Origin: Thermoprotei archaeon
Lineage (GTDB): Archaea > Thermoproteota > Thermoprotei_A > Sulfolobales > NBVN01
Assembly: GCA_003661745.1 (NCBI GenBank)
Contig: QMWS01000002.1
Location: forward strand, 1 to 41,753
Direction: 5' to 3'
DNA length: 41,753 bases
Positions 8,153 to 37,487 of the stretch are shown in pieces (the first letter of the stretch is position 1; every line of letters begins with the position of its first letter). A model generated the notes under the pieces. It saw nothing but the letters and a program-made list of their open reading frames with translations, was not told where the DNA came from and searched no databases. The translations under genes were made by a program, and so were the position numbers.

Positions 8153-8165
8153 CCTCAGCCCGCCG

Positions 8166-8260
8166 GAAATTCCCCTTTATTTTTGAAGAAAGTGAATCTT
8201 ATAAAGTTATATATCGAACGCGCCTCTAATTTAAGGAGCGGATTGCTTGGCATTGTTTCC
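8166..8260 (-). promoter_or_regulatory. AT-rich promoter-like element, copy B (tandem with copy A, 109-bp offset)
   Basis: A direct repeat of copy A with only a few substitutions over about 95 bp, judged by eye. Confidence 0.5.
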
Positions 8261-8287
8261 TCGTAGCTCGCGCTCGCGCCGGAGGCG

Positions 8288-8327
8288 GAATCTGCACTCG
8301 GACGCCTCAATCTCCGAGTGCAGATTC
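8288..8327. terminator. perfect 15-bp-stem hairpin at the end of the late (structural/lysis) operon
   Basis: GAATCTGCACTCGGA-cgcctcaatc-TCCGAGTGCAGATTC. It lies 38 nt beyond the lysin stop and upstream of the tandem AT-rich elements. The T-run (TTCTTTG) follows on the plus strand only. Confidence 0.6.
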
Positions 8328-8364
8328 TTTGCTCCCCGGCCTAGTAGGTCAAGCCGGCGGCGGG

Positions 8365-10380: not shown

Positions 10381-10721
10381 TCGTCAGCCTCGTCGTCTTC
10401 TAGCTTAATCCCCAGCTGCTCGCAGAGATCAAGCACCTCGCGGCCGGACGCGGCGGGCCAGTCCTGCTTGGCCTCGACTCTCTGCTTGAGGAACGCGGCC
10501 AGATTGCGATCTTTGACCTCGATGTCCCATCTCTTGTTAGGATCGTTCCAGGTGAATCCTGTCGGAGTCGACCGCAGGCCGACCTCCTCCTGCTCGTCTT
10601 CGCTCATTTCGAGCAAGTCAATTAGCTTCAACGCCTTGTTGATCGTCCGCAGGTCGCCTTGGACAGAGTTCACAAGCATGAGCAGTTGCAACCGCTGCCA
10701 TGTCGTTAGATTGAGCTTCAT
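10377..10721 (-). CDS. hypothetical protein between fibre and lysin
   Basis: 114-aa ORF with RBS GGGAGG and an ATGA overlap with the lysin start. Acidic C-terminus. No transmembrane segment seen. Confidence 0.6.
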   Translation of the reverse strand: MKLNLTTWQRLQLLMLVNSVQGDLRTINKALKLIDLLEMSEDEQEEVGLRSTPTGFTWNDPNKRWDIEVKDRNLAAFLKQRVEAKQDWPAASGREVLDLCEQLGIKLEDDEADE

Positions 10722-10757
10722 CTCTACCTCCCTTGTGTGTATCGTTACAACAGCTGA

Positions 10758-15320: not shown

Positions 15321-16716
15321 CGTAGTCCTCGTACGCGCACATTATCCAATTCTCATTCTCGTCCTGAATCTCATATTCCATTCCGTAGCTCAGCCAGGAT
15401 ATTTTGTCGAGATCTATCACGCTCGCCTCCCCGTCCGTGTCCGGGAGCCGATATGACAGGCTGCCATCGGCGCTCATTAGCGGGACGGCGCCCTGGCTTC
15501 GATAGCGCAAGTAACGCCATCGGTGAGTGAGCCGAACTCGGTAGTGATGCACCCCCCGCATGTAGGCCGAGTACCCGATATCTGGGTCACCAGGTGGCGC
15601 CGGACGCAGCAGTTGGTGCGGCTGGAAGTGATGTATCATCCACAGGGGACTCTCGCGGGAAGCATCCGGGTAGCAGTCGCTAAGGCTCCCCGCGATCACG
15701 TTCAGAGGTGCCGCCGCCAGCCGGTCGCCGTGCGCGAACGTTGCAGGGACGTGCGTCCGAGTCTCCGAGTCCAGGTCGTGGATATAGATCGTGTTGATCC
15801 CCACGAACGGCCCGTCCGGATAGATCCCCAGCTCAATCTGATAGCGCTCTCCTACGGTCAGCCCGTAAGCAGACAGATCGATGTCCCCGGAATAATCCCC
15901 GTCGGCGACGAAGTCCGCGAGCGGATTGCCCCCATTGAGTCGGCTATACCCCGTCACTGGGTATTTCTCCTCGTTCAGGAAGATCCTCACAAGATCCCCC
16001 GCCTCCATGCCCCACGTAGACAGGTTGTAATGGAGCGCCTTGCGCCCGTCGTAGACGAAACTCCATCGGAATAACGGCTCATAAGCATCTGGTTGCTCGT
16101 GATTGACCGTCCCGACAATGCTCCCGTAAGCGGGCTGCTTCGCGCGATCGTACAGATACTCCGACATCTGCTTCAGCGCGTTGAAGTCCGCTGCCGTCGG
16201 CTCGTTCCCGACCCCATCTGCGAACAGAGGGACGGAGCCTGGCCACGCGGTCAGGCCCACCTCGCCCTTCATCCAGGCCCGCGCGACGAGGGTGCACTCG
16301 CCCCCGCCAACGTAGAACCGTAACCGTAAGATGCCGTCCGACGGCAGGTCGAGGCCGGAGCAATCGAATTCGTTGTTCTCGACTCCGTTGAACCACCGAT
16401 CCCCGGCGTTCCCGTCCGACGCGATGGTCGTCCAGTTTCCTGAGCTGTTTACATACTCAAGATACGCCGCGCCGGATTCCCCCAAGTTGATCCGCGCGGA
16501 GAATACCAGCGTCGGATGCTCCGAGCGGTATTTCGTTTCACCAGCCCAGACCGTCGCGGGCGAGTACCAGCTCCATGTCTGGCGTTGCAGATACTGGATC
16601 GCGTGCGCCTGGCCGTATATCCAGTTCGCGCGCCTGGTCAAGGCGTTCAGCCACGTTGACGCCCCAAGGAATTCTCCATCGGTTAATTCGCGTAGTCCTG
16701 GCCACGCATGCAGCAT
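15313..16716 (-). CDS. minor tail protein (baseplate/tip region), function unknown
   Basis: Large ORF in the tail module. I prefer the ATG at 16716, which gives a TGATG overlap with the upstream stop. The ORF-track GTG at 16728 sits on top of the GGGAGG. Confidence 0.6.
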   Translation of the reverse strand: MLHAWPGLRELTDGEFLGASTWLNALTRRANWIYGQAHAIQYLQRQTWSWYSPATVWAGETKYRSEHPTLVFSARINLGESGAAYLEYVNSSGNWTTIASDGNAGDRWFNGVENNEFDCSGLDLPSDGILRLRFYVGGGECTLVARAWMKGEVGLTAWPGSVPLFADGVGNEPTAADFNALKQMSEYLYDRAKQPAYGSIVGTVNHEQPDAYEPLFRWSFVYDGRKALHYNLSTWGMEAGDLVRIFLNEEKYPVTGYSRLNGGNPLADFVADGDYSGDIDLSAYGLTVGERYQIELGIYPDGPFVGINTIYIHDLDSETRTHVPATFAHGDRLAAAPLNVIAGSLSDCYPDASRESPLWMIHHFQPHQLLRPAPPGDPDIGYSAYMRGVHHYRVRLTHRWRYLRYRSQGAVPLMSADGSLSYRLPDTDGEASVIDLDKISWLSYGMEYEIQDENENWIMCAYEDYDA

Positions 16717-18173
16717 CAGTAGACGCACCTCCCACCATCAGCGGTGCTCAGATGGCTGGTTCCGATGAGGAAGTATTCCGAATCCGCGTGCTCGTAGAAA
16801 TACGAGTAGTCTACCGCTGTTACATCCATGACCAGCGGGATCATTCCAGAGATGCTTATGCCGATTACGACCGCCGTCGTGTTCACGCCAGTCTGCGCGC
16901 CCGAGACCGATATCTTATCCCCGAGCTCAAGATTCGGGTTACACGGCAGACCCCGCAATCTTAGCACCATTGGCGGCGTAGAGAGTCGGTATTGGATAAG
17001 ATCCGCGAGGAGCCGTGCCTGCTCCGGTGTCTGGACGTACCAGTTGCCTCGGGTGCTGAGCTCCTTAGCGTCCGCCGATCCGGAGACGCTATTCGGATCT
17101 GCCGTATACGACTCGCTGGGACGGCCGACGAGCGCCCGGCCGGTGACGTTGAATTTCGTAATGAACGCCTCGTGCCGAGTGTTGTTGTTCGTAAATTCGA
17201 TCTCCCACGTCTGCGCCGACGCGGGACTGGCTGGGCTGATGCTCACGTCCGCCGAGATGTCCTCGCCCCCGCCAGTCACCGCGGCCATCTCGTACCCAGT
17301 GAACTCGGTTAGCGGGAACCTGAATGTCAGCGTTTCCGAACGGCTCTCCCCAGGCGGGATATGCAGCGCGCGGTGGAGTTGGTAAACAACCGCCGCCGCC
17401 GCCTCCTGTCGTGGCTCGTATTCCACGGTGACGACGTTGTATGTGCTGAAATAGTCGCGCTCCGGCACCAGTTCCTGGTAGAAGTCACCGTCCCATGAAT
17501 AGACGACGCTCTCCGTGAGCCAGTGCGTGTATGCCCAGAACCGTATACTGCCGCTCTTGTCCGTGAAGAGTACCCCCGCCTCTGACGCCGCCGCCTGGTT
17601 GAGCTCGTCCCACGCGTTGTCCTTCTCCGCGTATGCGTATGGTATGACGCAATGCGATTTCTCCAAGTCCCCCGCGCCCGGAGTGTACCCTGCCGCATTC
17701 AGCAGCGTCTCTATCCAGTCCCTGGTTGTCTGCTGCGTCGCCAGCGACGTCCGCACCGCCTGCCGCGCCACGTCCTCCCCAAGGTCGCGACAGACCAGCG
17801 TCGCCTCCACGGACGTCTCGCTCTCCCGCACGCCCGTGATGCGCCCGACGAATGCGACCGTGAGGTCTGACGAGTATCCCAGGCTAATCCGGATCTTCTT
17901 GTTGAAGATTCCGTATATATTCGCCTGGCTACCAGGCTTCGCTGCGCTATAGCGCCCATCGGCGTTCTGTACCTCTATGCTGGCCGTCCCGATCGGCGCC
18001 TGCCCCAGGCGGCCCAGGCTGCGGAGTGGATTCTGGAGTGAACGATCTATCCTCAGCCCACCGCTCGAAAGCCGCGACGTCTCATCTACCCATCCCGTCA
18101 CATCGCTCCAGTAGATCTCTACCTTAGCCGCCGGCTGTGCGACGTGATCGTCGTATAGCGTGTCAATGCTCAT
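16716..18173 (-). CDS. minor tail protein (Dit/Tal-region by position)
   Basis: 485-aa ORF, second gene after the tape measure and abutting the upstream stop. Called from position only. Confidence 0.6.
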   Translation of the reverse strand: MSIDTLYDDHVAQPAAKVEIYWSDVTGWVDETSRLSSGGLRIDRSLQNPLRSLGRLGQAPIGTASIEVQNADGRYSAAKPGSQANIYGIFNKKIRISLGYSSDLTVAFVGRITGVRESETSVEATLVCRDLGEDVARQAVRTSLATQQTTRDWIETLLNAAGYTPGAGDLEKSHCVIPYAYAEKDNAWDELNQAAASEAGVLFTDKSGSIRFWAYTHWLTESVVYSWDGDFYQELVPERDYFSTYNVVTVEYEPRQEAAAAVVYQLHRALHIPPGESRSETLTFRFPLTEFTGYEMAAVTGGGEDISADVSISPASPASAQTWEIEFTNNNTRHEAFITKFNVTGRALVGRPSESYTADPNSVSGSADAKELSTRGNWYVQTPEQARLLADLIQYRLSTPPMVLRLRGLPCNPNLELGDKISVSGAQTGVNTTAVVIGISISGMIPLVMDVTAVDYSYFYEHADSEYFLIGTSHLSTADGGRCVY

Positions 18174-20904: not shown

Positions 20905-21247
20905 TCACTGCCTCGACAGTCACCTGGCCGTAGGTGTTCATCCCGGACAGCGCCCAGACCCTGTTCAGCAGCTGCTGGACAGGGCCCCAGACCTTCTCTC
21001 GCAACTCCTGCGCCTGCTCCAGGGTCAGCTCAGGCTCTGCCAGGCCGTACTTCAGCGCCAGCGCTTCCATGCGCTCGGGATTGATCTCCCCAGATTCGTC
21101 CTGCGCCTCTCGAAGCATCTTCGTATGATCCGCTTTGCTGAACGCGCGGATCTTGACGAGTCCGAGCCCAGGCAGATCCACGATCTCCGTTACCGCGTCT
21201 GCCCTCGGCGCGGCGAGCAGCTCCTCAGCAGTTAGGAACTTCGTCAT
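20873..21247 (-). CDS. tail assembly chaperone (gpG-like)
   Basis: 124-aa acidic ORF between the tail tube genes and the tape measure. ATGA overlap with the upstream gene. Confidence 0.65.
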   Translation of the reverse strand: MTKFLTAEELLAAPRADAVTEIVDLPGLGLVKIRAFSKADHTKMLREAQDESGEINPERMEALALKYGLAEPELTLEQAQELREKVWGPVQQLLNRVWALSGMNTYGQVTVEAVKEAEQSFREG

Positions 21248-21642
21248 GAGACAGTGCCTCGCGTTACCGCGCCGTCGCTCACGATATCGAAACTGTACTT
21301 CACCGCATCAGCACCAGCAGGGCCTGGTCTGAATGAGGTGATACGGCAGTTCCCGCTGAATTTGACCTTGCCTGACGAGTTGCCCTGAGGATAGTACGTC
21401 CACGCCACTGCCGAGTCGCCGTCCCACGCGCTCCAGACAGCATCGTCCAGCGTCGGATCGTAGTCGCCACTGACCGAAATGCTGGCCATCTTGTGTCCCG
21501 CGAGCCGCTGTACCCACGCGGAGCCAAGGATCCTCAAATCCGCGATCTCACGCTCGAACGTCGGGTCGATGCTCTCGATATAGTCGAGGATGCTCACTCC
21601 CGCCAGTTCGAAATCGGCATCAATGCCGTGCCCAAAAGCCAT
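21244..21642 (-). CDS. tail tube-like protein, short paralog
   Basis: It shares FGHGI, Y(I/V)ES(I/V)DPTFER(E/D)IAD(L/I)R(I/V)L, WVQR(L/V)AG and YxPQG(N/D)S with the adjacent 240-aa protein. Confidence 0.65.
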   Translation of the reverse strand: MAFGHGIDADFELAGVSILDYIESIDPTFEREIADLRILGSAWVQRLAGHKMASISVSGDYDPTLDDAVWSAWDGDSAVAWTYYPQGNSSGKVKFSGNCRITSFRPGPAGADAVKYSFDIVSDGAVTRGTVS

Positions 21643-21649: not shown

Positions 21650-22372
21650 CTACCTCCTGCCAAATGCTATGAAGAATGTTGCAGCACTTCCCAACGACAG
21701 CGTCCACGCCGCGCGAATATAGCGCTCGACTGCCGTCTCTGCTGCCACAACCTTCTGTTCACTTGTCTCAGATGTTACGTCAGAGAACGCGACCAGGTCG
21801 CTCCAATCGCTTCCGTTGTCGCTATGCTGAATCTTCGCGGACAGCGTCGCGCCTCCATCTAGCGCTGTCACGATAAGATACGCGCCGCCGCCGTTGGCGG
21901 ATGCGCTTCCGCTATCCACGGTACTTCCTGCGTCCTCGCTACCAGTCCCCGTCTCCTCGCCGAGCGTATGCAAGATCTCCGCCCTGTCCGCGGACGTTGA
22001 GCCGATGACGGTCACGGGCATACGCACTGCATCGTCTCCTGCGGTTATGCTCTCCGAACTCACCAGGTTGACGCTGCAATACGCCACGCCGCCCAACGAA
22101 TCCCCCTGCGGCAGATATGCGAACACCCGCCCCGTGACGCCGTCGAAGATAGACCATACGCTCGGCCCGATGGCGCCCGCCGACGGGTCGTGTACCCCCG
22201 CCAGGGCGATGGTAATCGCCTTGCGACCCGCGACCCGCTGCACCCACGGCGTCGCGAGGACGCGGATATCCGCGATATCGCGCTCGAACGTCGGATCTAC
22301 GCTCTCGACGTATTGCGACAGGTCTACCGTGTGATAATAGACCTTGCTGCTTATTCCGTGGCCAAAGCTCAT
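21650..22372 (-). CDS. major tail (tube) protein, long paralog with Ser/Thr/Gly-rich linker and extra C-terminal domain
   Basis: It lies directly after the tail terminator-like gene. Its N-terminal ~130 aa are homologous to 21244..21642. These are followed by GEETGTGSEDAGSTVDSGSASANGGG and a further ~80-aa domain. Confidence 0.7.
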   Translation of the reverse strand: MSFGHGISSKVYYHTVDLSQYVESVDPTFERDIADIRVLATPWVQRVAGRKAITIALAGVHDPSAGAIGPSVWSIFDGVTGRVFAYLPQGDSLGGVAYCSVNLVSSESITAGDDAVRMPVTVIGSTSADRAEILHTLGEETGTGSEDAGSTVDSGSASANGGGAYLIVTALDGGATLSAKIQHSDNGSDWSDLVAFSDVTSETSEQKVVAAETAVERYIRAAWTLSLGSAATFFIAFGRR

Positions 22373-24591: not shown

Positions 24592-25545
24592 CTATGACCC
24601 CTCTTCAGTTAGCAGGACGCCGAACGGATAGCGCTCCGACTCGTCCTCTTCCATGCGATTGATCGGGTTGGGAACCTGCCATGCGATCCGCATGACCGCC
24701 CGCAACGCCACCATATCCTGTTGCGGCAGGTTGTAGACGATGTTCCCGTCCGCATCCTGGATCACTGCCTCAGTCAGCACCTTGTAACTGATGTCCTGCC
24801 TGAGCGCATAGATCATTTGCGACCAATCGCCGCAGATGAGCATCGCGTTCTGCCCGTTGAAGACGCCGTTACGCGGGAACTCGACCGGCTCACCGTCGAG
24901 TTCGTAGCGGTTCCTCTCCTGGACGTTCCTGGAGAAGATCAGCTGCCCGTCAGTCGCGCGCAGTCCCCGCAGGATCCCGCGCATCGAGACGTCCGCGATG
25001 TGACCGGTGATGAAGTACCCGTCCGCCTCGACCAGGCTCACGACTCCGTTCTCAGAGAGAAGGTCGTCGTAGATGTCCGGATTGGTTCCGTAGACTACGC
25101 TGTTACCAGCGGCTACAGCCGCCGTCACGACGTCAGTCGGCCAGGTCGCAGGTGCGTTCGTGCCGAACAGGACGGCCATGTCAAACACCCTGCCCATGGC
25201 CTCAACGATCCGCGGGCGGATCTCGCCCCACACGTCGTAGTCCTGGTCGTCGAGCACAGCCTCCGGAATCGGGACGATGCACGCGAGCTCCTCGGCGTTG
25301 AGATACTTGTTCTCCCACGCCTGCTCGGTGGTCTGCTTCAGGCCGATATCACCAGATACGAAGTACGCCGTTGGCAGCGCACTTAGCACTGGGATGCTCC
25401 GCTGCGCCCTCGGCATGTCCGGCGCGCGGGTGGCCAGGCGCATCACCGCACTCGACTCGGTGACGCCCTGTACGATCTCACGGCTGGTATCCGGTGGGAT
25501 GAGCGCAGCCGCATCACTCCTGCTTATAAGCGAATTGTACGCCAT
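24592..25545 (-). CDS. major capsid protein (HK97 fold family)
   Basis: 317 aa, placed after the scaffold gene. The N-terminus and overall pattern fit phage major capsid proteins. RBS GGAGAGG. Confidence 0.85.
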   Translation of the reverse strand: MAYNSLISRSDAAALIPPDTSREIVQGVTESSAVMRLATRAPDMPRAQRSIPVLSALPTAYFVSGDIGLKQTTEQAWENKYLNAEELACIVPIPEAVLDDQDYDVWGEIRPRIVEAMGRVFDMAVLFGTNAPATWPTDVVTAAVAAGNSVVYGTNPDIYDDLLSENGVVSLVEADGYFITGHIADVSMRGILRGLRATDGQLIFSRNVQERNRYELDGEPVEFPRNGVFNGQNAMLICGDWSQMIYALRQDISYKVLTEAVIQDADGNIVYNLPQQDMVALRAVMRIAWQVPNPINRMEEDESERYPFGVLLTEEGS

Positions 25546-28681: not shown

Positions 28682-28810
28682 CTAATTCTTACGCTCCACG
28701 TCTATCACGCCGAACTGCCAGAAGAGTCTGGCGAACGTCCAATTGCTGATGACCAGCACCTGGTTTATCGCCCAGGCGACCCACGGATTCATAATCACGC
28801 GCACAATCAC
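28682..28810 (-). CDS. possible 42-aa hydrophobic peptide between portal and MuF
   Basis: Hand translation gives VIVRVIMNPWVAWAINQVLVISNWTFARLFWQFGVIDVERKN. Its GTG overlaps the portal TGA, and its TAG lies 2 nt before the MuF ATG, which has no RBS of its own. Confidence 0.3.
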   Translation of the reverse strand: MIVRVIMNPWVAWAINQVLVISNWTFARLFWQFGVIDVERKN

Positions 28811-30141
28811 ACCCCCCTCTCGAATTGTGTCAGCAGCTTCTCCCCCAGCTCTGCGTCACCAGCCGTCCGCTCCTCCGCCATACGCTCGATCTCCTCAGGA
28901 CTGTAGCCAAGCTCCGCCAGTAGCTGCTCGCGGCTCACGCCCACCTGCTGCTTGAGCAGCGCCGTCTCAGCCTCCGCCCGCGGATTCCGCGGTGCAGCGT
29001 CTTCCCAGACTGTTGATAACCTGTAGTCTCCCTCGATCTCGCGCATCCGAAGCGCCAGGCTCATGCAGTCTTCCCAGACATCGCCGAACGTCTCCTGCAA
29101 ATTCGTGACGATCGTCGTGAGCCGCGCCTCCGCGGTCTTCATCGCCTCGCCCGAAGGCCAGCCGCCCGGGTCAAGCATGAGGTAGTGAAACGGGACTCCA
29201 GAGACACGCGCGATCTCCGCGCGGAAGGAATTCTGGACTTCCAGGAACTGCTTCAGATTCGCAGGGTCGAACTGACCGAACCGCACGTCGGGATCGCCGA
29301 CCGTCCAGATTCGCTCCACCCCAGGAGTGAATGGCGCCTTCGGCTTGCCCGTGACAGGATCAACCTCGACCTCAAGGCCGGTCGCCCACCGCTGCGGCAG
29401 TGAGACGTACTCCATTGCGACGAGCATATCCGCAACCGATTTGTTGAGTGCGTTCTGGAGCGGAATCACGTCCGCCAGCGCCGACCGCCCGAAGTTCGAC
29501 TCCCCCGTGCTGTCGTTCGCGAAGTGGAATACCGGAACCTGTCCCCAGGGATTCGGCACCACCGGCTCGTCCTCCAGCGGGACGTACCCCCGCGCGTCGC
29601 TAAGCGTGCCGTCCACCGCGCGCGACGTCACGTACTTCTCTATCCTATCTGGGTAGTAGAGATTTAGTCGAATCCGACCATCCTCAAGCCGCCACATCCG
29701 CGCCGCGCGCGTTATCTCGCCGTTCCCCTCGTCGCTGTACGCCACCGACATCCGGATAGCGCAGTTCGGATGAATCATCGGCAGTCCGTCCTGGCCGGGC
29801 CAAACAATCACGTACGCGTCACCATCCCTGAGCGCCATCCGATGCACGACACGTGACTTCCGCCCCATGCGGTTCTCTTGCCAAATGCCCCACGCCACGC
29901 CCGGCACCACGTCCTCCCCAGACTCCGCGCCGAAGCCGATTACAATCAGCCTGTCCGCCAGCGTGTCCACCACGACGCCGCAGAGGTTGTCTGCAAATGC
30001 ACTGAAGAACGATCCGAACGCGTTCCTGAAGCGCTCTGTCGCGAATGTAAGCTTGTGCTCGCCGTTGTAGTACTGCTGCGCAATCCTGTACCCCGGCTCG
30101 CGCGAGAGGATTGAATCTATCGCCCATTTGATGTCGCTCAT
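28807..30141 (-). CDS. portal protein (SPP1 gp6-like)
   Basis: 444 aa with an N-terminus typical of SPP1-type portals (YRIAQQYYNGEHKL...). It lies upstream of MuF. Confidence 0.9.
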   Translation of the reverse strand: MSDIKWAIDSILSREPGYRIAQQYYNGEHKLTFATERFRNAFGSFFSAFADNLCGVVVDTLADRLIVIGFGAESGEDVVPGVAWGIWQENRMGRKSRVVHRMALRDGDAYVIVWPGQDGLPMIHPNCAIRMSVAYSDEGNGEITRAARMWRLEDGRIRLNLYYPDRIEKYVTSRAVDGTLSDARGYVPLEDEPVVPNPWGQVPVFHFANDSTGESNFGRSALADVIPLQNALNKSVADMLVAMEYVSLPQRWATGLEVEVDPVTGKPKAPFTPGVERIWTVGDPDVRFGQFDPANLKQFLEVQNSFRAEIARVSGVPFHYLMLDPGGWPSGEAMKTAEARLTTIVTNLQETFGDVWEDCMSLALRMREIEGDYRLSTVWEDAAPRNPRAEAETALLKQQVGVSREQLLAELGYSPEEIERMAEERTAGDAELGEKLLTQFERGV

Positions 30142-30746
30142 CTTTGCCTCACTCTCTTCCGTATGTCAGGCCCGCGTCGGCTACCATGCGGCTCACGCGT
30201 GATCGGTGACCACGGCCTCCTGCGCCTCCGCGACGGCCGCACCTCCACGCGCTCCTGCTTGAGCTCCCCAGCCGTTGCGTATACCAGCCATGACTGCGGC
30301 AAGATACACGCCCGCGGCTTCACGATGTGGAAAGCCCTGAGGAACGCCAGCCGCTCGTCCTCGCCCTTCAGACATTCCGACCGCCACGTGACCAGGAACT
30401 CCCGCCCCGCATCGTCGTTGCGCACGAACAGCAGCTCGTACCCGTGGAGCAGCTGCCTCAAGTCAAGCACAACCGACCTGGTTAGCTTTCGCTCATCCAC
30501 CGTGCCCACGTCCGCTGCAAGAGTACCGTAGTTCCAGAGTGGAACTGCCATCTCCCAGGTGTCAAGAAACGAGAAGCCAGCGTCGAGCAGTCTGACAGGT
30601 ATCTTCATCCCGTGCGCAAGGAACAGCGTCTTGTCACCCGACAGCTCCCAATCGTCCGCGCCGCTCCGCACACGGATGCTGTACGGCGCTCCGAGTTGGT
30701 TCGCGATGCCACTGGCGTCGTCTATCGTCGCGATCACATTCGTCAT
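30138..30746 (-). CDS. hypothetical protein, last gene of the glycan cassette
   Basis: I set the start at the ATG at 30746 (MTNVIATIDD), which gives an ATGA overlap with the methyltransferase stop. Its own stop overlaps the portal ATG. Arg-rich C-terminal tail. No motif recognised. Confidence 0.6.
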   Translation of the reverse strand: MTNVIATIDDASGIANQLGAPYSIRVRSGADDWELSGDKTLFLAHGMKIPVRLLDAGFSFLDTWEMAVPLWNYGTLAADVGTVDERKLTRSVVLDLRQLLHGYELLFVRNDDAGREFLVTWRSECLKGEDERLAFLRAFHIVKPRACILPQSWLVYATAGELKQERVEVRPSRRRRRPWSPITREPHGSRRGPDIRKRVRQR

Positions 30747-31195
30747 TTGCGCACCCTCATCCGCGCCAGGAAGCTCGTCTCGGCGTTGTTCAGCCAGGGC
30801 CCCTTGACAATCTCCCACTTCCGCGGCGTATACCAGTGGTACGCGCGCCCCGCCTTCCGATCAGGGTCGAAATAGTCGAGCGCCCCCGGCGAGAGATGCC
30901 AGACATGCGTCGGATCCCTGTACGAGGTCTCGCTGTTCCACATGGGCAGCTTGATGAACAGCTCCGCGCCAGGCCGCAGGATGCGCCAGCACTCGTCCAG
31001 CGCCTCGACCAGCGTGATCCGGAGATGCTCGAACACCGAATGCGCGATGACCACGTCGAACGACTCGTCCGACCAGGGCCACGGTCGCTCGTTGAGGTCG
31101 TGCGTCACGTCGATCTCCTCGCGGTGCTTGACGAGATCGTGGTTCACCGCCCCACTGACGATCGAATTCCCTGCTCCAAGATTCAGGATCTTCAC
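30743..31195 (-). CDS. class I SAM-dependent methyltransferase
   Basis: Motif I KILNLGAGN and FDVVIAHSVFEHL of Methyltransf_11 type. I prefer the GTG at 31195 because GAGGAGGAGG precedes it and it gives a GTGA overlap; the ORF-track start is 31369. Confidence 0.75.
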   Translation of the reverse strand: MKILNLGAGNSIVSGAVNHDLVKHREEIDVTHDLNERPWPWSDESFDVVIAHSVFEHLRITLVEALDECWRILRPGAELFIKLPMWNSETSYRDPTHVWHLSPGALDYFDPDRKAGRAYHWYTPRKWEIVKGPWLNNAETSFLARMRVRK

Positions 31196-31965
31196 GCCTC
31201 CTCCTCTTCGAGCCATACTGCATATGGCGTCCGCTCTATCTCCGCCCGCACGGCGCCCCAGTTCTCGATGATCTCCGGCAGCGGCTGTGGGTTCACGCGG
31301 CGCAAATGGCAATGCAACATAGCCTGCGGCACGCCGAGGAAGTCGCAGATGCGGCTCGACACGTCCCACGGGATCCCCGTCGCCTCACCGTGCCCTGACC
31401 ACGCGATATCCTCGTATGTGAGCTCGAGCAGCTGAGAGAACTCCGCCAGTTTCGTCTTCGCGAACTCGTCCTGCTCACGCAGTTCTTCAATAGCCCTGAT
31501 GATAGACCGCGGCGCCAAGGACACCCGCTCGCGCATCGTGACCGCGCGGAATGTGTGTTGCGGCAGCGTAATGTGACCCGCGCGCGCCTTGCAGTTCAGC
31601 AGGAAGCTCACGGCCTGACGCAGGTAGTTTTCGCGCCGAAGATGAATCACAGCAGGCTGCGCCCTCACCAGGTACTCCCAGACGCCGTCTAGGAATGCCT
31701 GCCGGTATGTGAGTTTGCACATGCTCACATGATAACCAGTTTGGTCGAGCAGCGCCTGCAAGAGATCTACGCGGGTGATCCCGTCTAGGCAGTCGAGCCA
31801 CACGCTCCTGTAATGCAGCGGCTCGCCGCGGTCGCAGAAGATGTGCGGGTGATTACTCAGGCAATGTGCCAGGAACGTCCCCCCGCTTCGCAGCGACGCG
31901 ATGATTACCGCCGGTCGTGCGATGCCCCTGGTCATGTCGTTCTCGGTTATGCTCTCCGCTATCAT
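31192..31965 (-). CDS. Stf0-like sulfotransferase
   Basis: VIIASLRSGGTFL resembles a 5'-phosphosulfate-binding loop. HLRRENYLRQAVS resembles a 3'-phosphate-binding RR..Q.VS motif. I set the start at the ATG at 31965, which gives an ATGA overlap with the upstream stop. Confidence 0.7.
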   Translation of the reverse strand: MIAESITENDMTRGIARPAVIIASLRSGGTFLAHCLSNHPHIFCDRGEPLHYRSVWLDCLDGITRVDLLQALLDQTGYHVSMCKLTYRQAFLDGVWEYLVRAQPAVIHLRRENYLRQAVSFLLNCKARAGHITLPQHTFRAVTMRERVSLAPRSIIRAIEELREQDEFAKTKLAEFSQLLELTYEDIAWSGHGEATGIPWDVSSRICDFLGVPQAMLHCHLRRVNPQPLPEIIENWGAVRAEIERTPYAVWLEEEEA

Positions 31966-32789
31966 CTCCTCAGCTCCTCGTTGTACGCTCGAACCGCCTC
32001 GATGAGCCGCGCCGGCCGCCCCGTCCTCCTTGCCCACGCGCACAGGTTCGCCGTGTCCTTCGGCAAGCACTTGCCGCCGAAGCCGCGGTTCTCCGGATAC
32101 ACATAGGTGTGACTCCGCGACACCCGCGGGTCAGCCAGCCACAGCTCGCGCAGCTCGTGCCAGTCTACACCAGCCGCCGCGGCGAGATCATAGAATTGAT
32201 TGCAAAATGCGACCTTCGTCGCCAGCCAGGAGTTTTCCATCAACTTGCACAGCTCCGCCGTGCGCGCATCGGTCTGGTAGATGCGCAGCGACGAGTTGGT
32301 GACCAGCGTCCACGCCGTCGCGAATGCCCGCGTCACCTGCCGCGGCCCGCCCAGGATCACGAATGGCAGGCTGTTGCGGAGCGGGTGGTCAACCGTCTCG
32401 CCGTAGTACTCCGGCGAGAAGCAGGTGTTGCTCCCCAGCCACTCGGTCGTCCCGACCTCGACCGTGCTCTTAACGCACCAGTAGCGTACGCGATAATTCC
32501 AGCGCTCATACGCGTGGATGACTTCCGAGCAGTCGCAGCTCCCATCCTCCGCCTCGGGCGTCGGCACGCAGATGAACCCGAGCTCCCAATCCTTACGCTC
32601 ACCCTCAGGGAACGCCGCCAGGTCGTCCGCCACCCGCCGGACGACGCCGTCTACGTCCACGTAGTCCGCATCCGCGAAGAACCGCCCGATCTGCCGACCG
32701 ACATGGCCATAGCCGACGATGAGCGTCGGCGGGTGATGATTGACAACCTCTGGATGCGGCTTAGGCACCATGCTTTCGCTCCCACTCAC
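31962..32789 (-). CDS. nucleotide-sugar (UDP-glucose/GDP-mannose type) dehydrogenase, short form
   Basis: LIVGYGHVGRQIG is the Rossmann motif. GFGGKCLPKD is the catalytic Cys motif. The ORF ends about 30 aa after that motif. The start is either the GTG at 32789 or the ATG at 32771. Confidence 0.75.
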   Translation of the reverse strand: MSGSESMVPKPHPEVVNHHPPTLIVGYGHVGRQIGRFFADADYVDVDGVVRRVADDLAAFPEGERKDWELGFICVPTPEAEDGSCDCSEVIHAYERWNYRVRYWCVKSTVEVGTTEWLGSNTCFSPEYYGETVDHPLRNSLPFVILGGPRQVTRAFATAWTLVTNSSLRIYQTDARTAELCKLMENSWLATKVAFCNQFYDLAAAAGVDWHELRELWLADPRVSRSHTYVYPENRGFGGKCLPKDTANLCAWARRTGRPARLIEAVRAYNEELRR

Positions 32790-34443
32790 TCACCTTCCTC
32801 CACGCCCTTTCACTGTCGATCCGCCCCGGGATTGCGCCCGACCACCTGCGCGCCTGCTTCGGGAAATGCAGAATGCCCGCGGTCTCCACGCCCTCGGAGT
32901 ATGCCGGGAACGTGTTCCACTCGTTCCCCAGGACAAGCGTCCGCGGCGGGTCAGCATACAGCGCCATAAGCAGCGGCCCCTGGTCGCGCTGCGCAAACAC
33001 CTCCCACTCCTCGCGCCACCGCTTGAAGAACCGCTCCACACGCTCGCAGCGCCTGAACGCCCACACGCCACCATTCAGCTGAATCGTGTGAAGTGTCTTG
33101 ACAGCCCTACGCACCTTCCGCATCTCCGCGGCGTTATTTCGCCTGCGGTACGAGAACATCGTGTCCATGAGGTGCGGGTCTTTGCAGATGATGAATTCCC
33201 AACCGTCCTCGATCCACTCGAAGAACCGATACACCGGCGCGGTCACCAGGGTGTCGGCGTCGAGGTACAGCACCGATTCCCACTCCGCCGGACTCAGCTC
33301 GTATGCGCGAAGCTTAGCCCGCCTGCCGCCGATGTCACTGTCCTCCTGCTGGACGAAGACGTCCTCCAGCCCCAGCGGCTCCGCGCCGCATAGGCAAACG
33401 GGGATGTCCGGCATATGCTCCTTGATGCTCTCCAAGAGTCTGCTTGCGCACTTGCGCGCAGGGCCGCCGAACGCGACGACGTAAATCCCCCGCGTCGAGC
33501 CCGTGCCGTGATCTATCGGGTCAGCCATCTTGACCTTCACCTTCGCCTTCTTCCGCACCGTCTGGCGAACCCGCGGCGCGATAGCCTGGAACGCCTGGTC
33601 GTGCGCGGCGACGAAGTTCTCGACAGAGTGCTCCGCCGTCGCGTCACGGAGCGCATCTCTGTCAACACTCCTGCACGTGTCCATGGCCAGGAGCAGCGCC
33701 AGTATCATGCTCTTCGCGTCGCCGCGATTGAAGCGATGTATGCCATTGACGTCCGGCAGCTCATCGTGGAGCCCGACGCCCTTCGAGATCACCACGGGCA
33801 CGCCGCACGCCAGCGCCTCCAGGGTCGGCATCGGGATCCCCTCGACCCGCGACGGCACCAGCAGGATGTCCAAGCCGCGATAGAAGTCAGGCATCTCCGC
33901 CCACTTGTAGCGCCTCGTCGGCACCGGCCAGCCACGGCCGCTCGCTCGCCACTCCACGCGCCCGCCCAGCACCCCCGCCGCGAAGCGAACCAGATTCTCG
34001 CCCTTCCGCTGATTACGATACGTATACCCCGAGACGCCTATGACCACCGGCCCCGACCGCTTGCTCCTGGCGGGCGTGAATCGATCCCGCTCAACCGGCG
34101 CGGGCACCTGCACCGTCGGCCCGCGCGGAGACAGCAGGTCGGTGTAGATCCCAGCGGTGGTTATCCGCAGATCCACCCGCCGCCCCACCGAATCGAATAA
34201 CTTCGCCTTCGAGTTACCAGGGGGCTCCTCCTCGCGATGCGTGAAATACGCCGCCACAGGGACGTCGGGCCAGGGCTTCAGCCGCTGCGCCTCGAAATAC
34301 GCAAGCATGTACAGCGCGTCCGCGTCGTCCTCGATCACGCCATATCGCAGGCTCCATCCCAGGCGCTCCGCTAGATACCTCGCCATGCGCGGGATCACGC
34401 GGTCGTCCCGCCAGTTTCGGCACCAAATCTGCACGTTCACCAC
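32761..34443 (-). CDS. two-domain glycosyltransferase (GT-B/GT4-like N-terminal half plus GT-A/GT8-like C-terminal half)
   Basis: N-terminal half: LLVPSRVEGIPMPTLEALACGVPVV (EX7E). C-terminal half: VLYLDADTLV (DxD) and NGGVWAF. The GTG start overlaps the TerL stop. Confidence 0.8.
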   Translation of the reverse strand: MVNVQIWCRNWRDDRVIPRMARYLAERLGWSLRYGVIEDDADALYMLAYFEAQRLKPWPDVPVAAYFTHREEEPPGNSKAKLFDSVGRRVDLRITTAGIYTDLLSPRGPTVQVPAPVERDRFTPARSKRSGPVVIGVSGYTYRNQRKGENLVRFAAGVLGGRVEWRASGRGWPVPTRRYKWAEMPDFYRGLDILLVPSRVEGIPMPTLEALACGVPVVISKGVGLHDELPDVNGIHRFNRGDAKSMILALLLAMDTCRSVDRDALRDATAEHSVENFVAAHDQAFQAIAPRVRQTVRKKAKVKVKMADPIDHGTGSTRGIYVVAFGGPARKCASRLLESIKEHMPDIPVCLCGAEPLGLEDVFVQQEDSDIGGRRAKLRAYELSPAEWESVLYLDADTLVTAPVYRFFEWIEDGWEFIICKDPHLMDTMFSYRRRNNAAEMRKVRRAVKTLHTIQLNGGVWAFRRCERVERFFKRWREEWEVFAQRDQGPLLMALYADPPRTLVLGNEWNTFPAYSEGVETAGILHFPKQARRWSGAIPGRIDSERAWRKVSEWERKHGA

Positions 34444-35642
34444 GCTACGATCCTTCGGCTCCGTTGAGGCGTGCTGACCATCGCAAACGCCCCCGCGACC
34501 GCGTCCACCTGGTCGTCGTGCGTAGAGCCATCGCCTGTGAACGATACGAACTCGTCAATAAAATCTCTCACCCAATCTCCTCGCACCAGCGTCAGCTTGC
34601 CCTGCTCCGCCCGCGCAGCCACCGGTAACGCGCGCGTTAACTTGTCCTTGTCGACATCGATACCGCGGACGGAGATGCGCGCCAGCTCGCGACGCCGCAG
34701 CAGCGTCTGCACCGCCGCAATGCCGTGAAGCGACTTCTCGATGCCCTGCTCCACACCAGTGCCTTCAAGCAGCATAGTCTGCAACATAATCCGCTCCTGG
34801 TCTGGCCACTCCCACCGACCACGGATCACGTCGCGCACGTAGACAGTGCCATCGTCCGCCTGCGCCACGGCCGCGGATGCGGTGTAGTCCGCGCTCGTCT
34901 TTGTACTCGCCGCCAAGTCCCAGTACCGCGCCCAGCGCAGCCCACCCGGGGCCGCGTCCACAATGCGGAACCACTCGCGCCTGAACAGCGTCCCCGCCTG
35001 ATCGATGAACTCGCCCTCGAGCTCCTGCTTCGCGAAGAACTCAGTGTACTGACTCCTCACCGCTTCGTAGAATCCCTCTGGCAGGAACGGGTTCTCCAGC
35101 GTCCGGATCCGGAACAGCTCCGTACCTTCCCTGCCGCTGCCGAAGACCTCGTACGTCCAGTGCGCCCGCCCTTTAGGCGTGAACGTCGCAGACAGCCAGC
35201 CAGGCTTGCCACCACCGCCGCGGAGGGACGCGATGACGATCTCGAACGCGTCGCGCTTCATGAGACTCGCCTCGTCCAACCACGCGCCCGCCAGGTTCGG
35301 CCCGCGCGCGCGCTCCGGATCGTCCAACGATCGACAGATGATCTCCGCACCATTCCCAAGCTTGAGCATCATATCGCTCAGATTGATGCTGCGCAGGCAG
35401 TGCATCTGGTCGCAGATTGTGGTCAATGCCCTGAACGTCGCGTCTTTGAGCATTCCGTATGTCGGTGCGTACACACCGAAAAGCAGGCCGCGCGAGTCCG
35501 CAGACATCGCGCGTACCGCCATATCCAATGCTCCAACGTATGTCTTGCCGCTGCCGCGCCCGCCGACCAGCGCGCGGAAGGTCGCCTTTGAGTCCCTAAA
35601 CGCTTTCTGCTTCGGACTCAGCTTGATCCTCAGCTCCCGCAA
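34437..35642 (-). CDS. terL: terminase large subunit
   Basis: Walker A GGRGSGKT, Walker B AWLDEAS, and C-terminal nuclease-type acidic residues (YWDLAAS, THDDQVDA). There is no ATG start. I prefer the TTG at 35642, 6 nt after AGGAGG; the ORF-track TTG is at 35657. Confidence 0.9.
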   Translation of the reverse strand: MRELRIKLSPKQKAFRDSKATFRALVGGRGSGKTYVGALDMAVRAMSADSRGLLFGVYAPTYGMLKDATFRALTTICDQMHCLRSINLSDMMLKLGNGAEIICRSLDDPERARGPNLAGAWLDEASLMKRDAFEIVIASLRGGGGKPGWLSATFTPKGRAHWTYEVFGSGREGTELFRIRTLENPFLPEGFYEAVRSQYTEFFAKQELEGEFIDQAGTLFRREWFRIVDAAPGGLRWARYWDLAASTKTSADYTASAAVAQADDGTVYVRDVIRGRWEWPDQERIMLQTMLLEGTGVEQGIEKSLHGIAAVQTLLRRRELARISVRGIDVDKDKLTRALPVAARAEQGKLTLVRGDWVRDFIDEFVSFTGDGSTHDDQVDAVAGAFAMVSTPQRSRRIVAW

Positions 35643-36033
35643 CCACGACCTCCTCAACCAGCTTCAGCTTCACCTCGCCGTCGTGCATGTGCCGAACCCG
35701 CTGGCCGTACACCTCGGGACGGCGTGATGTGAGAATAAACGTCAATAATTTATCGCTACTTTCTTGAGCACGCTTCCAGGCAATAGCCTCGAGACCATCC
35801 AGCGCCTCTTCCAGCGCCTCGTCCCACGCCGCCTCGAACGTCTTCCAGCGCCGTCGCGCACAGTACGCACCGCCTCGCGTAATACCAGCGGCCTGACAGG
35901 CGGCGCGCACGTTCGCGGTGTTCCGCAGCGCCGCGATAAACCTGGCCATCCACGGCCGCGGCAAGTCGCGCCTCCGGCCGATCAGCGGCCCCAGCTCCCC
36001 TGTACCGCCTTTTCTGCTCTCCCTCTTGCTCAT
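35596..36033 (-). CDS. terS: terminase small subunit (HTH type)
   Basis: 145 aa directly upstream of terL. It has an HTH-like segment NVRAACQAAGITRGGAYCARR. Confidence 0.7.
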   Translation of the reverse strand: MSKRESRKGGTGELGPLIGRRRDLPRPWMARFIAALRNTANVRAACQAAGITRGGAYCARRRWKTFEAAWDEALEEALDGLEAIAWKRAQESSDKLLTFILTSRRPEVYGQRVRHMHDGEVKLKLVEEVVVAGAEDQAESEAESV

Positions 36034-37487
36034 ACCTCCAACTCCGGATTCAAACCATCATCTGCGAATCTCTCCAGGGCGACGGCGACGTAGCGAGGCT
36101 CGCGTTCTGTGGCTATGCATCTCCGCCGCAATCGCTCGCACGCCAGAAGCGTCGTCCCCGACCCGAGGAACGGCTCCCACACCAGGTCGCCCTGCTCGCT
36201 ATAGACCTCGATCGCGCGCAGCGGCAGCTCCAGCGGGAACGCTGCGACGTGATATCGCAACGGCGAGCCTTCGGCGTCGTGCGTACTCCAGACTGCGTGG
36301 ACGGACATGCGCCACTTCCGGCGTGGCAGGCGGCGCTCCTTGCCGCCCTTCGACCTGAACGTCCATACGAAATCATATCCCTCGATGGGCACTCCTGAAA
36401 ATACCCTCCACAAATTCTCCAGCCACTGCTGGGCTACAATATCGTCCTCCAGCAACTCCGTGGATCGTTGCGGCACCCGCCTGATAACCAGCTCCTCCGG
36501 CTCGTCGTCCTCGCCCCCGGGCGCGCGGAACGACCACACGTACTCCCACTCCTGATGGTGTGGGATCGTTGAGTGGTACGACCAGAACGGTGCCGGAAGG
36601 CGCTCGAAGGGCTTCCGCCAGATCCGATTCGCCCAAAGCTTCCAACCGTGACGACGGAAGCGCTCGTTGTAGATGCACGACATCAGGAAGACGCCGTAAC
36701 TCGCGTCCCCCGTAATGCGCTCGACGATGCTCTTGACGTAGATGTCGCCGAAGTTGACGACGAAGTAGCCGCCAGGAATCACAACACGCGCGCCGACCTC
36801 AGCAGTCTTGTCGATCAGCTCCACCAGGTCGCCGAACGCCTCCCCCTCCTCGTACTCCTTACCCACGCCGTAGGGCGGCGACGTCACCGCCATGCGCGCC
36901 CGCTCACCAGCGAAAAGCGCCTCCACCGCCTCGATGTCCGTGCAGTCGCCCACAAGCAGCTTGTGCTCCCCGACCCGCCAGACCTGACCAGGCTCGACCC
37001 CCCACTTCTCGCGCAGCTCCTCCGCCTCGTCCACGCGCGGCTCAGCGGTCTCGTCGGAGTCCGAATCGAACTCCCTACCTATCCCTTCCGCAAGGCTGTC
37101 GAGCAAGTCGCGCACCGCGTCGTTGCCCGTCTGCACGTCGCTCAGAAGATCCGCCAGCGCCTCGGGATCCGTCTCCGCCGCCGCAGCCAGCGGATCCAGC
37201 GTCGCGAGCGTAAGCTTCTCCTCGTCCTCATCGAGGTCAACGTACAGGACAGGTATGGTCGGCTCTTTGCGTGACAGGGCCAGCGCCACGCGCAGGTGGC
37301 CGTCCAGGATGAAGCCGGTGCGCTTGTTCACGATGACCTGCTGCACCCAGCCAACCTCGTCAAGAACGCCCTCCAACGCTCCCCGCTGCGCATCAGGGTG
37401 CGCGCGCCAGTTCCGCGGATTCGCGACGAGATCGCCAGGTGGCACGTCCGCACTACCAACTATCCGATTCCTCCAACGTCGCTTCAC
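36030..37487 (-). CDS. ParB-like nuclease domain fused to a beta-class N6A/N4C DNA methyltransferase
   Basis: N-terminus: NPRNWRAHP...VIVNKRTGFILDGHLRV (ParB/Srx fold). Middle: VTSPPYG (motif IV). C-terminus: VWEPFLGSGTT (motif I). Confidence 0.85.
   Translation of the reverse strand: MKRRWRNRIVGSADVPPGDLVANPRNWRAHPDAQRGALEGVLDEVGWVQQVIVNKRTGFILDGHLRVALALSRKEPTIPVLYVDLDEDEEKLTLATLDPLAAAAETDPEALADLLSDVQTGNDAVRDLLDSLAEGIGREFDSDSDETAEPRVDEAEELREKWGVEPGQVWRVGEHKLLVGDCTDIEAVEALFAGERARMAVTSPPYGVGKEYEEGEAFGDLVELIDKTAEVGARVVIPGGYFVVNFGDIYVKSIVERITGDASYGVFLMSCIYNERFRRHGWKLWANRIWRKPFERLPAPFWSYHSTIPHHQEWEYVWSFRAPGGEDDEPEELVIRRVPQRSTELLEDDIVAQQWLENLWRVFSGVPIEGYDFVWTFRSKGGKERRLPRRKWRMSVHAVWSTHDAEGSPLRYHVAAFPLELPLRAIEVYSEQGDLVWEPFLGSGTTLLACERLRRRCIATEREPRYVAVALERFADDGLNPELEV

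Follow-up and report, generated by a model that had tools for sequence, protein, structure and literature searches.

A gene on the minus strand of a 41,753-nucleotide stretch of DNA from contig QMWS01000002.1 (the whole stretch is referred to below as the window; the source contig measures 41,803 bp) encodes a 257-residue protein at positions 31192–31965. On the basis of its sequence and its predicted structure, this protein can be assigned with high confidence to the sulfotransferase fold, with an intact signature for the binding of 3′-phosphoadenosine 5′-phosphosulfate (PAPS). Judged by its gene content, the window is a near-complete genome of an uncultured tailed phage, and the sulfotransferase (ST) gene lies in a group of sugar-modifying genes placed among the genes for head morphogenesis. 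The membership in this glycosylation cassette, which was absent from the first-pass annotation of the DNA, is the most informative feature of the gene. The reading toward which we lean, and which we consider moderately probable, is that the protein is a cytoplasmic, PAPS-dependent O-sulfotransferase that would serve as an optional tailoring enzyme of a phage glycan cassette, the glycan being possibly one carried by virion proteins.

Predicted fold and PAPS-binding signature

We built an AlphaFold2 (AF2) model of the protein on the alignment of its family, which reached a pLDDT of 95.1 and a pTM of 0.91, and compared the model with the Protein Data Bank (PDB) by Foldseek. Ranks 1–30 were all occupied by sulfotransferases or by retinol dehydratase, which has the sulfotransferase fold, with probabilities of 0.93–1.00 and a best E of 2.1e-6. 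Members of this top 30 include 3RNL (E = 2e-6), the carbohydrate 3-O-sulfotransferases (3-OSTs) 3-OST-3, 3-OST-5 and 3-OST-1, the tyrosylprotein sulfotransferases TPST1/2, the CurM ST, NDST1, the SULTs and Teg14. The first P-loop kinase in the PDB list appeared at rank 31, and the kinases had E≥8e-3. When a library of viral structures was searched instead, the matches were phage and giant-virus sulfotransferases.

The superfamily of PAPS-dependent sulfotransferases has an α/β fold derived from that of P-loop proteins, which cytosolic, carbohydrate and tyrosylprotein enzymes have in common. Two marks of the superfamily are present in the sequence: a (K/R)xGxT loop that follows the first β-strand, and a motif for the 3′-phosphate with a conserved Arg (R111) and, some 8–9 residues further on, a Ser (S120). 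The first corresponds to the 5′-phosphosulfate-binding (5′-PSB) loop R26-S-G-G-T30 (codons at 31876–31890, minus strand; residues 20–32 read VIIASLRSGGTFL). It lies between strand 1 and helix 1, since the secondary structure of the AF2 model runs E17–23 and then H29–37. The loop aligns with the RSGST or RSGTT loops of Stf0, the CurM ST, the OLS ST and TPST1/2. The second mark is the 3′-phosphate-binding (3′-PB) motif R111-ENYLRQAV-S120 (codons at 31606–31635, minus strand; residues 108–120 read HLRRENYLRQAVS), which aligns with HRPDVVSQAVS of the Stf0 structure 1TEX.

Residue conservation was counted in an alignment of 35 relatives of the sulfotransferase. In the 5′-PSB loop, R26, G28 and T30 are found in 35/35 sequences, G29 in 34/35 and S27 in 26/35 (Ser or Thr in 32/35). 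In the 3′-PB motif, R111, R116 and S120 are invariant, with N113 in 33/35, Q117 in 30/35, V119 in 28/35 and R110 in 19/35. The first-pass annotation had described a sulfotransferase-fold protein with 5′-PSB and 3′-PB motifs, encoded by a phage. The fold and the motifs are borne out by the Foldseek top 30 and by this conservation, which extends to the very positions whose loss in homologues the annotation had named as a way in which it could be wrong. The phage origin is likewise confirmed by the terminase small (TerS) and large (TerL) subunit, portal, capsid and tail genes in the window.

A word-indexed search with the protein found 157 proteins at E≤1e-3, far more than chance would produce; the matches have about 50% identity and E of about 1e-72 to 1e-38, with E of about 5e-72 for the best non-self ones. 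When 1.84 billion cluster representatives were searched with a profile, 189 matched at E≤1e-30 and 2601 at E≤1e-10. Judging from these matches, the gene belongs to a distinct, well-populated subfamily. Further residues are invariant in the alignment (L32, L36, H39, R46, E48, H137, Y184, L210 and N225), and C44 and K84 (33/35 each) are nearly so; the invariant residues that belong to the subfamily itself are H137, Y184, N225 and the pair NW235–236. The matches also contain larger proteins. P0158 (1047 aa), P0227 (1143 aa) and P0243 (732 aa) contain two to four stretches that match the sulfotransferase profile, or the domain within a much longer protein, and tandem or fused architectures of the family thus exist.

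The same first-pass annotation had called the enzyme Stf0-type and had proposed a Pfam search as a check. Both of the expected families are matched by the window protein, and both fall under their gathering thresholds: Sulfotransfer_3 (PF13469) scores 18.7 bits against a cut-off of 27 (E = 0.0022, residues 18–48 only), and Stf0 (PF09037) scores 17.8 bits against 22 (E = 0.0026, residues 101–186 only, a range that includes the 3′-PB motif). Of the relatives, 30/35 match Sulfotransfer_3 (E≤0.01, best 2.5e-8), 4/35 Stf0 and 1/35 Sulfotransfer_1, and one shows a weak match to NoeE. The family is related to Sulfotransfer_3, yet the window protein is not a formal member of PF13469. With the proteins of that family, such as TPST1/2, the CurM and OLS STs and many bacterial and phage proteins that are uncharacterised, it has in common the overall fold as well as the strand at the N-terminus, the RSGxT loop, the helix and the HPxIxC(x)E segment. 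It differs from Sulfotransfer_3 at large in its sub-threshold score, in its own invariant residues and in its fixed genomic partnership with a glycosyltransferase cassette. PADLOC gave no match for the protein.

If the protein were a true Stf0 orthologue, it would make trehalose-2-sulfate or another free sugar sulfate and would be an auxiliary metabolic gene for the sulfolipid or sulfur metabolism of the host. The 3′-PB region gives the sole match to PF09037, and when the family profile was compared with the PDB, the top match was Stf0 1TEX (E = 0.053) with both motifs aligned, followed by the CurM ST, the OLS ST and TPST1; a single-sequence phmmer search of the PDB gave noise only. The protein also resembles Stf0, the trehalose 2-sulfotransferase of M. 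smegmatis, in the RSG(S/G)T loop, in the R-x4/5-QAVS segment and in being small and soluble (about 250–290 aa). However, its score stays under the PF09037 cut-off, few of its relatives match that family, the E of the profile match is high, and 1TEX is outside the top 50 of the Foldseek comparison. The genomic context differs as well: it is a glycosyltransferase cassette with no trehalose or lipid genes, and the MAGs (metagenome-assembled genomes) with the cassette are mostly Chloroflexota, not mycobacteria. We therefore consider an Stf0 orthologue extremely improbable, and the label “Stf0-type” is not established. The protein is a divergent sulfotransferase whose membership in Stf0 is not demonstrated; its N-terminal half resembles the TPST/CurM group, and the 3′-PB segment alone appears Stf0-like.

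The Foldseek results also bear on the idea that the cassette hypermodifies phage DNA by glycosylation of bases and their further decoration, or that the “sulfotransferase” is a P-loop kinase whose substrate is DNA or a nucleotide. Phage glycosyltransferases can glycosylate DNA (PMC12619734), a 5-hmdU DNA kinase is a weak structural match (E = 0.014), and the gene immediately upstream of TerS encodes a DNA methylase. On the other hand, the protein has a loop of the sulfotransferase type, RSGGT, and no Walker A GxxxxGK[ST], and its kinase matches are far weaker than its sulfotransferase matches. Furthermore, the window yielded no gene for a hydroxymethylase or for a thymidylate-synthase-like protein, and the cassette is linked to capsid rather than replication genes. 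We regard this idea as highly improbable.

Candidate catalytic residues

Conservation leaves four candidates for the catalytic base: E48, H39, H51 (31/35) and H137. The invariant E48 (codon at 31822–31824, minus strand) follows the segment HPxIFC(D)RGE and, from its position after HPxIxC, is the putative counterpart of the catalytic Glu of the TPSTs. The HPxIxC segment before E48 aligns with HPDIRC of TPST1, the alignment extending up to the Cys. The spacing from R26 to E48 is 22 residues, and in the 3-OSTs about 22 residues separate the loop and the catalytic Glu.

The likeness to TPST1 raises the question of whether the enzyme might be a tyrosylprotein-type sulfotransferase that acts on a protein side chain, either of a virion protein or of a secreted peptide as in RaxST, independently of the glycosyltransferase. 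The N-terminal profile RSGGTfLahcLSnHPdifC aligns with TPST1, its PDB matches are only TPST1/2, the CurM ST and the OLS ST, and TPSTs are among the top Foldseek matches (E = 5e-5 to 4e-4). However, the N-terminal profile matches are not significant (E = 0.16–1.2), and the Foldseek TM scores are 0.51–0.55 for the carbohydrate 3-O-sulfotransferases compared with 0.41–0.44 for the TPSTs. In addition, the sulfotransferase gene lies beside glycosyltransferase genes in every related locus of sufficient length (in one of them, L005, beside other glycosyltransferases), where it behaves as one of several interchangeable genes for sugar tailoring. Action on tyrosine thus seems to us decidedly unlikely.

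The closest solved structures are 3-OST-1/3/5 and the bacterial ST 3RNL (Foldseek E = 2e-6 to 5e-4, TM score normalized to the query (TMq) 0.48–0.55). Of these, the 3-OSTs are O-sulfotransferases of carbohydrates that possess a Lys/Arg loop and use a Glu as base. The window protein is only 14–18% identical to these structures, and it differs from the 3-OSTs in setting, since those are eukaryotic Golgi enzymes that act on glycosaminoglycans.

The cassette in the window

The genes on the same strand are arranged in the order TerS, TerL, glycosyltransferase (GT), UDP-glucose dehydrogenase (UGDH)-like protein, sulfotransferase, methyltransferase (MT), a 202-aa protein and portal. All junctions from TerL to the portal gene overlap (GTGGTGA, ATGA, GTGA, ATGA and ATGA). 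The GC content at third codon positions (GC3) of the cassette genes is about that of the rest of the genome, so that the cassette is not a fresh insertion.

The sulfotransferase gene itself starts with ATG at 31965 and stops with TGA at 31192–31194 on the minus strand. The longest open reading frame (ORF) reaches an upstream GTG at 32070. We take ATG 31965 as the real start because the homologues begin at most a few residues away and because this ATG overlaps the upstream stop as ATGA; the sequence GAGGAG is found 8 nt upstream of it. The gene call is further supported by the homologues and the AF2 model.

Upstream, the cassette is bounded by TerL (34437–35657, minus strand; Pfam Terminase_6N, Terminase_3 and Terminase_6C, and PHROGs), whose stop overlaps the start of the GT gene. 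The core of the cassette is this two-domain glycosyltransferase of 560 aa (32761–34443, minus strand; Pfam Glyco_trans_1_4, Glycos_transf_1 and GT4-conflict). It consists of an N-terminal GT4 domain of the GT-B fold, followed at the C-terminus by a GT-A domain that contains the DxD motif YLDADT; D95 and D97 are invariant in the alignment of the latter domain. Against the PDB, the GT-A domain gave only two weak matches, both to GT8 enzymes (Skp1 alpha-galactosyltransferase, E = 0.078, and glycogenin-2, E = 0.28).

The next gene (31962–32789, minus strand) encodes a protein of 275 aa, or 269 aa if read from ATG 32771, that resembles UDP-glucose/GDP-mannose dehydrogenases (UDPG_MGDP_dh, E = 2.4e-23, partial N-terminal domain; phrog_9148). 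The protein keeps the catalytic-Cys motif GGKCLPKD and ends after the central domain, so that the usual C-terminal UDP-binding domain is missing. A counterpart of 270 aa and 71% identity is found in L044/L056 (L044, 7968–8780) and a relative with 35% identity in L045 (10438–11193); the gene is absent from the other loci. Because the 270-aa counterpart with 71% identity occurs in a phage contig binned with Sideroxydans, this short form is genuine rather than an artefact of truncation.

Downstream of the sulfotransferase gene, a GTG start that overlaps its stop (GTGA) opens the gene for a methyltransferase of 150 aa dependent on S-adenosylmethionine (30743–31195, minus strand; Methyltransf_11, E = 7e-9; phrog_6636). 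The stop of the MT gene overlaps the ATG of the gene for the conserved 202-aa protein (orf202/orf226, here orf202; 30138–30746, minus strand), and the stop of orf202 overlaps the ATG of the portal gene as ATGA. The portal gene (28807–30141, minus strand; Pfam SPP1_portal, E = 1.3e-31) forms the downstream boundary. For orf202 there was no match in Pfam, PHROG or PADLOC. Its 10 homologues share 30 invariant positions (e.g. GDDERLAFLRALHIVKP..LP.SW). An hhalign comparison of orf202 with the GT-A domain gave E = 0.0047 and a probability of 7.5%, toward the C-terminal half, which is a weak, suggestive similarity. The AF2 model of orf202, built from 10 sequences, is poor (pLDDT 58), and Foldseek returned nothing for it under E = 0.67.

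The first-pass annotation had also held that the enzyme needs PAPS from the host. This is supported by the gene content: no APS kinase or ATP sulfurylase was detected among the window ORFs large enough to encode one. Since the window revealed no gene for PAPS synthesis, the enzyme would have to use PAPS made by the host.

A constant core with interchangeable tailoring genes

The cassette recurs at more than 50 loci of uncultured phages or prophages. The related loci that we compared (n = 56; numbered with the prefix L) include the loci with a homologue of the sulfotransferase, namely 37 viral loci in IMG/VR and four long contigs from protein look-ups, and 12 loci that were seeded with the GT. 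When the ST-seeded loci were searched by tblastn with the window proteins, both domains of the GT, the MT and orf202 were located next to the sulfotransferase in nearly every one, in varying order. The same tblastn searches found no match for the TerL, portal, MuF or capsid proteins of the window in the related loci. The GT is 40–70% identical in essentially all of these loci, and the MT, with 45–61% identity, adjoins the ST or GT gene in most of them.

A scan of GTDB genomes seeded with the ST gave no relative, and a scan seeded with the GT-A domain gave 12 MAG contigs. They are assigned to Anaerolineae or Anaerolineales (5), Caldilineaceae, Dehalococcoidia, Aggregatilinea, Zixibacteria, Gamma- or other Pseudomonadota and Sideroxydans, and the MAG assignments of cassette carriers are mostly to Chloroflexota. 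The GT-seeded loci always contain the GT and orf202, usually the MT, the ST in 3/12, and the UGDH-like gene in two distinct elements. Across the loci, orf202 accompanies the GT in almost all cases, more faithfully than the ST or the MT does. In the loci of a second type, type B, orf202 adjoins an extra paralogue of the GT-A domain.

The content of the slot between GT and MT differs from phage to phage. It holds one to four GT2 genes in L047, L053 and L012, two NAD-dependent sugar epimerases/dehydratases and a Methyltransf_24 protein in L010, another Methyltransf_24 protein in L025, and in L024 a second, unrelated sulfotransferase of the Sulfotransfer_4 family (E = 1.3e-31). Because the GT and orf202 are constant and the gene content of the slot varies among phages, the cassette can be read as a locus for glycan biosynthesis and tailoring, with a constant core and interchangeable tailoring enzymes, in which the sulfotransferase is predicted to be one optional tailoring gene.

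Two further arrangements were observed in these loci. In L024 (1738–2742), the Sulfotransfer_4 domain is fused to a Methyltransf_24-like N-terminus and lies next to a sulfotransferase of the family studied here. Two paralogues of the family studied here occur together in L005 (6133–6837 and 8073–8795) and in L031–L033 (L032, 6228–6923 and 10001–10714).

When 50,697 deposited phage genomes were searched by tblastn, the GT, ST and orf202 of the window found no match there, and a megablast search of window positions 30000–35000 against INPHARED returned nothing. Phage sulfotransferases as such are already known, and the fold and the motifs are standard. The first-pass annotation had stated that sulfotransferases are rare in phage genomes, which is overstated. 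Among the viral predicted structures are proteins of Synechococcus phage S-SCSM1, of Xanthomonas phage FoX4 and of uncultured marine phages that are annotated as sulfotransferases, and Sulfotransfer_3 genes of unknown function are reported in the genomes of marine phages that infect OM43 (PMC10580990). Literature phrase searches on phage-encoded or viral sulfotransferases returned no papers. What is new is a subfamily without a tblastn match in the deposited phage genomes, its apparent function as an optional tailoring component of a glycan cassette that is widespread and linked to the capsid and head genes, and the proposal of a sulfated virion glycan.

Linkage of the cassette to capsid and head genes

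Upstream sequence is available for 44 loci, and in 43 of them a gene for an HK97-type major capsid protein ends 17–962 bp before the cassette. The capsids fall into two groups by the tblastn query that detects them. The gap between capsid gene and cassette is 17–103 bp in type A and 540–962 bp in type B, which leaves room for one or two small ORFs. There are two exceptions: in L042 the gap is 2.6 kb, and in L005, a contig of 84 kb that contains other sugar genes, no capsid gene could be recognised. Capsids of cluster-N mycobacteriophages and of Gordonia and Arthrobacter phages, all of which are without the cassette, are 45–49% identical to the type-A capsid of L049.

The window phage is an outlier in this comparison. 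Its capsid, of 317 aa, is unrelated to both groups, and its cassette lies between TerL and the portal gene. The cassette has therefore been transferred to a different backbone on at least one occasion, and there too it came to lie in the head operon. We also considered whether the cassette hops freely between unrelated backbones. This was rejected, as the capsids of most carriers are recognisable by tblastn as type A or type B.

The only physical link to a host that we found is L049, an integrated prophage (locus 71–17711) in the 198.5-kb Caldilineaceae MAG contig CAZAPG010000007.1, which connects the cassette to Chloroflexota. The order of genes in this prophage is integrase, TerS, TerL, portal, protease, capsid, GT-MT-orf202 (without the ST) and tail genes. 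Such a prophage is of interest for another explanation, in which the cassette and its sulfotransferase modify an envelope glycan of the host (O-antigen, S-layer glycan, exopolysaccharide or wall polymer) and thereby block superinfection or change the surface of the lysogen. Serotype conversion by phage glycosyltransferases is known (PMC12619734), at least one carrier is this integrase-bearing integrated prophage, and the hypervariable tailoring slot resembles O-antigen loci. However, the cassette is located in the late head operon, to which it is translationally coupled in the window and where it follows the capsid gene in nearly all other loci, and it lies away from the integrase or immunity region. 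Nor was a flippase, a polymerase, a lipid-carrier priming transferase or any multi-pass membrane protein seen in the cassette or in the hydropathy scan of the window: none of the cassette proteins has a predicted transmembrane segment or exceeds a Kyte-Doolittle value of 1.6 over any 19 residues, and the only window ORFs that exceed this value, with one stretch each, are orf485 (1.89) and the portal (1.63). On balance, we consider modification of the host surface unlikely.

A proposed role in virion glycosylation

The explanation that we favor is an O-sulfotransferase that tailors a phage glycan, and it would operate as follows. The RSGGT loop, through R26 and T30, would hold the 5′-phosphosulfate of PAPS made by the host, and R111 and S120 would hold the 3′-phosphate. 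A sugar hydroxyl would lose its proton to an invariant residue of acidic or basic character, most likely E48 aided by K84, and would then attack the sulfuryl group. The acceptor would be a glycan built in the cytoplasm by the adjacent GT4 and GT8-like enzyme with its 202-aa partner. The neighboring methyltransferase may O-methylate the same glycan, and in the window phage the UGDH-like enzyme may supply it with a sugar of the uronic-acid type. Because the cassette is translationally coupled to head genes, and because it lies directly after the capsid gene in related phages, the glycan is most likely synthesized late in infection and joined to proteins of the virion (capsid and/or tail) during head assembly. 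The outcome would be particles with a methylated, negatively charged coat of sulfated sugars. We infer the use of PAPS, the sugar acceptor, the attachment to the virion and any biological role of the coat from the gene sequences and their arrangement.

A broader version of this proposal appears possible to us, and we put it forward tentatively. The cassette would represent a capsid-linked, hypervariable “virion O-antigen” locus in a large group of uncultured tailed phages, of which at least some are prophages of Chloroflexota. Around the constant core of the GT4 and GT8-like enzyme and its 202-aa partner, the exchangeable tailoring genes would produce diverse glycans on the particle, and the subset of these phages that carries the sulfotransferase, the window phage among them, would have particles with sulfated, methylated glycans.

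Several points weigh against the favored explanation. We infer the activity as well as its donor and its acceptor, and attachment to the virion is suggested by gene position only. The GT domains are too divergent to name the sugar or the acceptor, and the N-terminal motif of the sulfotransferase is as TPST-like as it is carbohydrate-sulfotransferase-like. The Foldseek TMq values are moderate (0.37–0.55), both Pfam scores of the window protein stay below their cut-offs, as described above, and the protein had no NCBIfam or PHROG match. The C-termini of the capsids count on the same side. We considered a C-terminal Gly-Ser of the capsid as a signature of the acceptor for the cassette, since 30 of the 38 distinct cassette-linked capsid tails (37 loci and the window) end in Ser or Thr, often as ...SGS and also as ...AGS or ...GGS, and the capsid of the window (C-terminus at 24592–24609, minus strand) ends in ...EEGS. 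This candidate was rejected as not specific. Eight cassette-linked type-A capsids end in ...ELA or ...LWA, and among four related actinophages without the cassette, Raymond7 (...SSGS) and Butters (...MASS) end in Ser and Faith5x5 and MargaretKali end in Ala (2/4 Ser). For the window proteins in general, 6 of the 41 that were examined end in Ser.

Comparison with known phage glycosylation modules

The arrangement in the window phage has a precedent in the actinobacteriophage Corndog, a siphovirus, for which the text searched (PMC4351075) describes gp35–38 as an O-methyltransferase, two GTs and a GlcNAc-transferase between the genes for portal and protease. Likewise, GT and methyltransferase genes are found inside the head-morphogenesis operon of the window phage. 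In mycobacteriophages, capsid and tail-tube subunits carry glycans at their C-termini, according to the summary of Freeman 2023 given in PMC12619734, and pairs of GT and MT genes in Rhodococcus phages are also read as serving virion glycosylation (PMC13313380). There are also differences. The GT, ST and orf202 of the window have no sequence match in the modules of Corndog, Che8 and Myrna, these phages being included in the 50,697 records searched. A sulfotransferase is not reported for the actinophage modules, and for Corndog none is mentioned in the text searched (PMC4351075). Furthermore, the window cassette is distinguished by the fused GT4 and GT8-like enzyme, the obligatory 202-aa partner and the hypervariable tailoring slot. 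Finally, the actinophage glycans are reported on capsid and tail-tube subunits, whereas the window cassette is known from genes alone.

The analysis gives the sulfotransferase a fixed address, namely the tailoring slot of a glycosylation cassette in the head operon of dozens of independent uncultured phages. To our knowledge, virion glycosylation has been demonstrated in actinobacteriophages only. If the proposed role is correct, virion glycosylation would extend beyond these phages to environmental phages whose MAG assignments are mostly to Chloroflexota. It would also involve a new chemistry, an anionic sulfated coat, which could affect the charge of the particles, their aggregation, their adhesion to polysaccharide matrices or their recognition by hosts. 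With such a coat, a sulfated glycoconjugate would be described for the first time on a bacterial virus, and phage sulfotransferases that are so far unexplained would gain a function. The modular variability of the cassette suggests diversifying selection on the phage surface. Should the role not be confirmed, the gene would still represent a new and clear-cut subfamily of sulfotransferases, small and soluble, for which there is a high-confidence model and a set of defined partners.

Other features of the phage genome

The head genes of the window encode TerS, TerL, an SPP1-type portal, a MuF-like protein, a scaffold, an HK97-type capsid and a head-completion protein, and they are accompanied by genes for tail-completion and tail-tube proteins and by a 710-aa minor-tail/tape-measure-like ORF. 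A protein with an SLT domain and a protein of 1520 aa with a carbohydrate-binding module are also present, and the replication module contains a primase-polymerase, an SNF2 helicase and AAA_24. The overall GC content is 61.6%. There is no tRNA gene in the window, and hence none to help assign the host.

The 1520-aa protein, which contains CBM_4_9 (10758–15320, minus strand), has a GC content of 54.9% and a GC3 of 60%, compared with about 62% and 75–80% for the genome. Because these values are markedly lower than in the rest of the genome, its composition suggests a recently acquired host-recognition module.

Two adjacent genes on the minus strand (21244–21642 and 21650–22372) encode tail-tube-like paralogues that are homologous over an N-terminal region of about 50 residues. 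The 132-aa paralogue shows a weak match to Phage_tail_2, and the 240-aa paralogue has an extra linker rich in Gly, Ser and Asp (GTGSEDAGSTVDSGSASANGGG) and an additional C-terminal domain.

In the replication module, a protein of 451 aa (2769–4124, minus strand) with an N-terminal Rossmann motif for FAD/NAD(P) binding is encoded between DUF669 and AAA_24, which is an unusual place for an oxidoreductase; its matches to DAO and Pyr_redox_2 extend over residues 10–43 only. Directly upstream of TerS, and overlapping it by 4 nt, lies the gene for a 485-aa N6/N4 DNA methyltransferase (36030–37487, minus strand).

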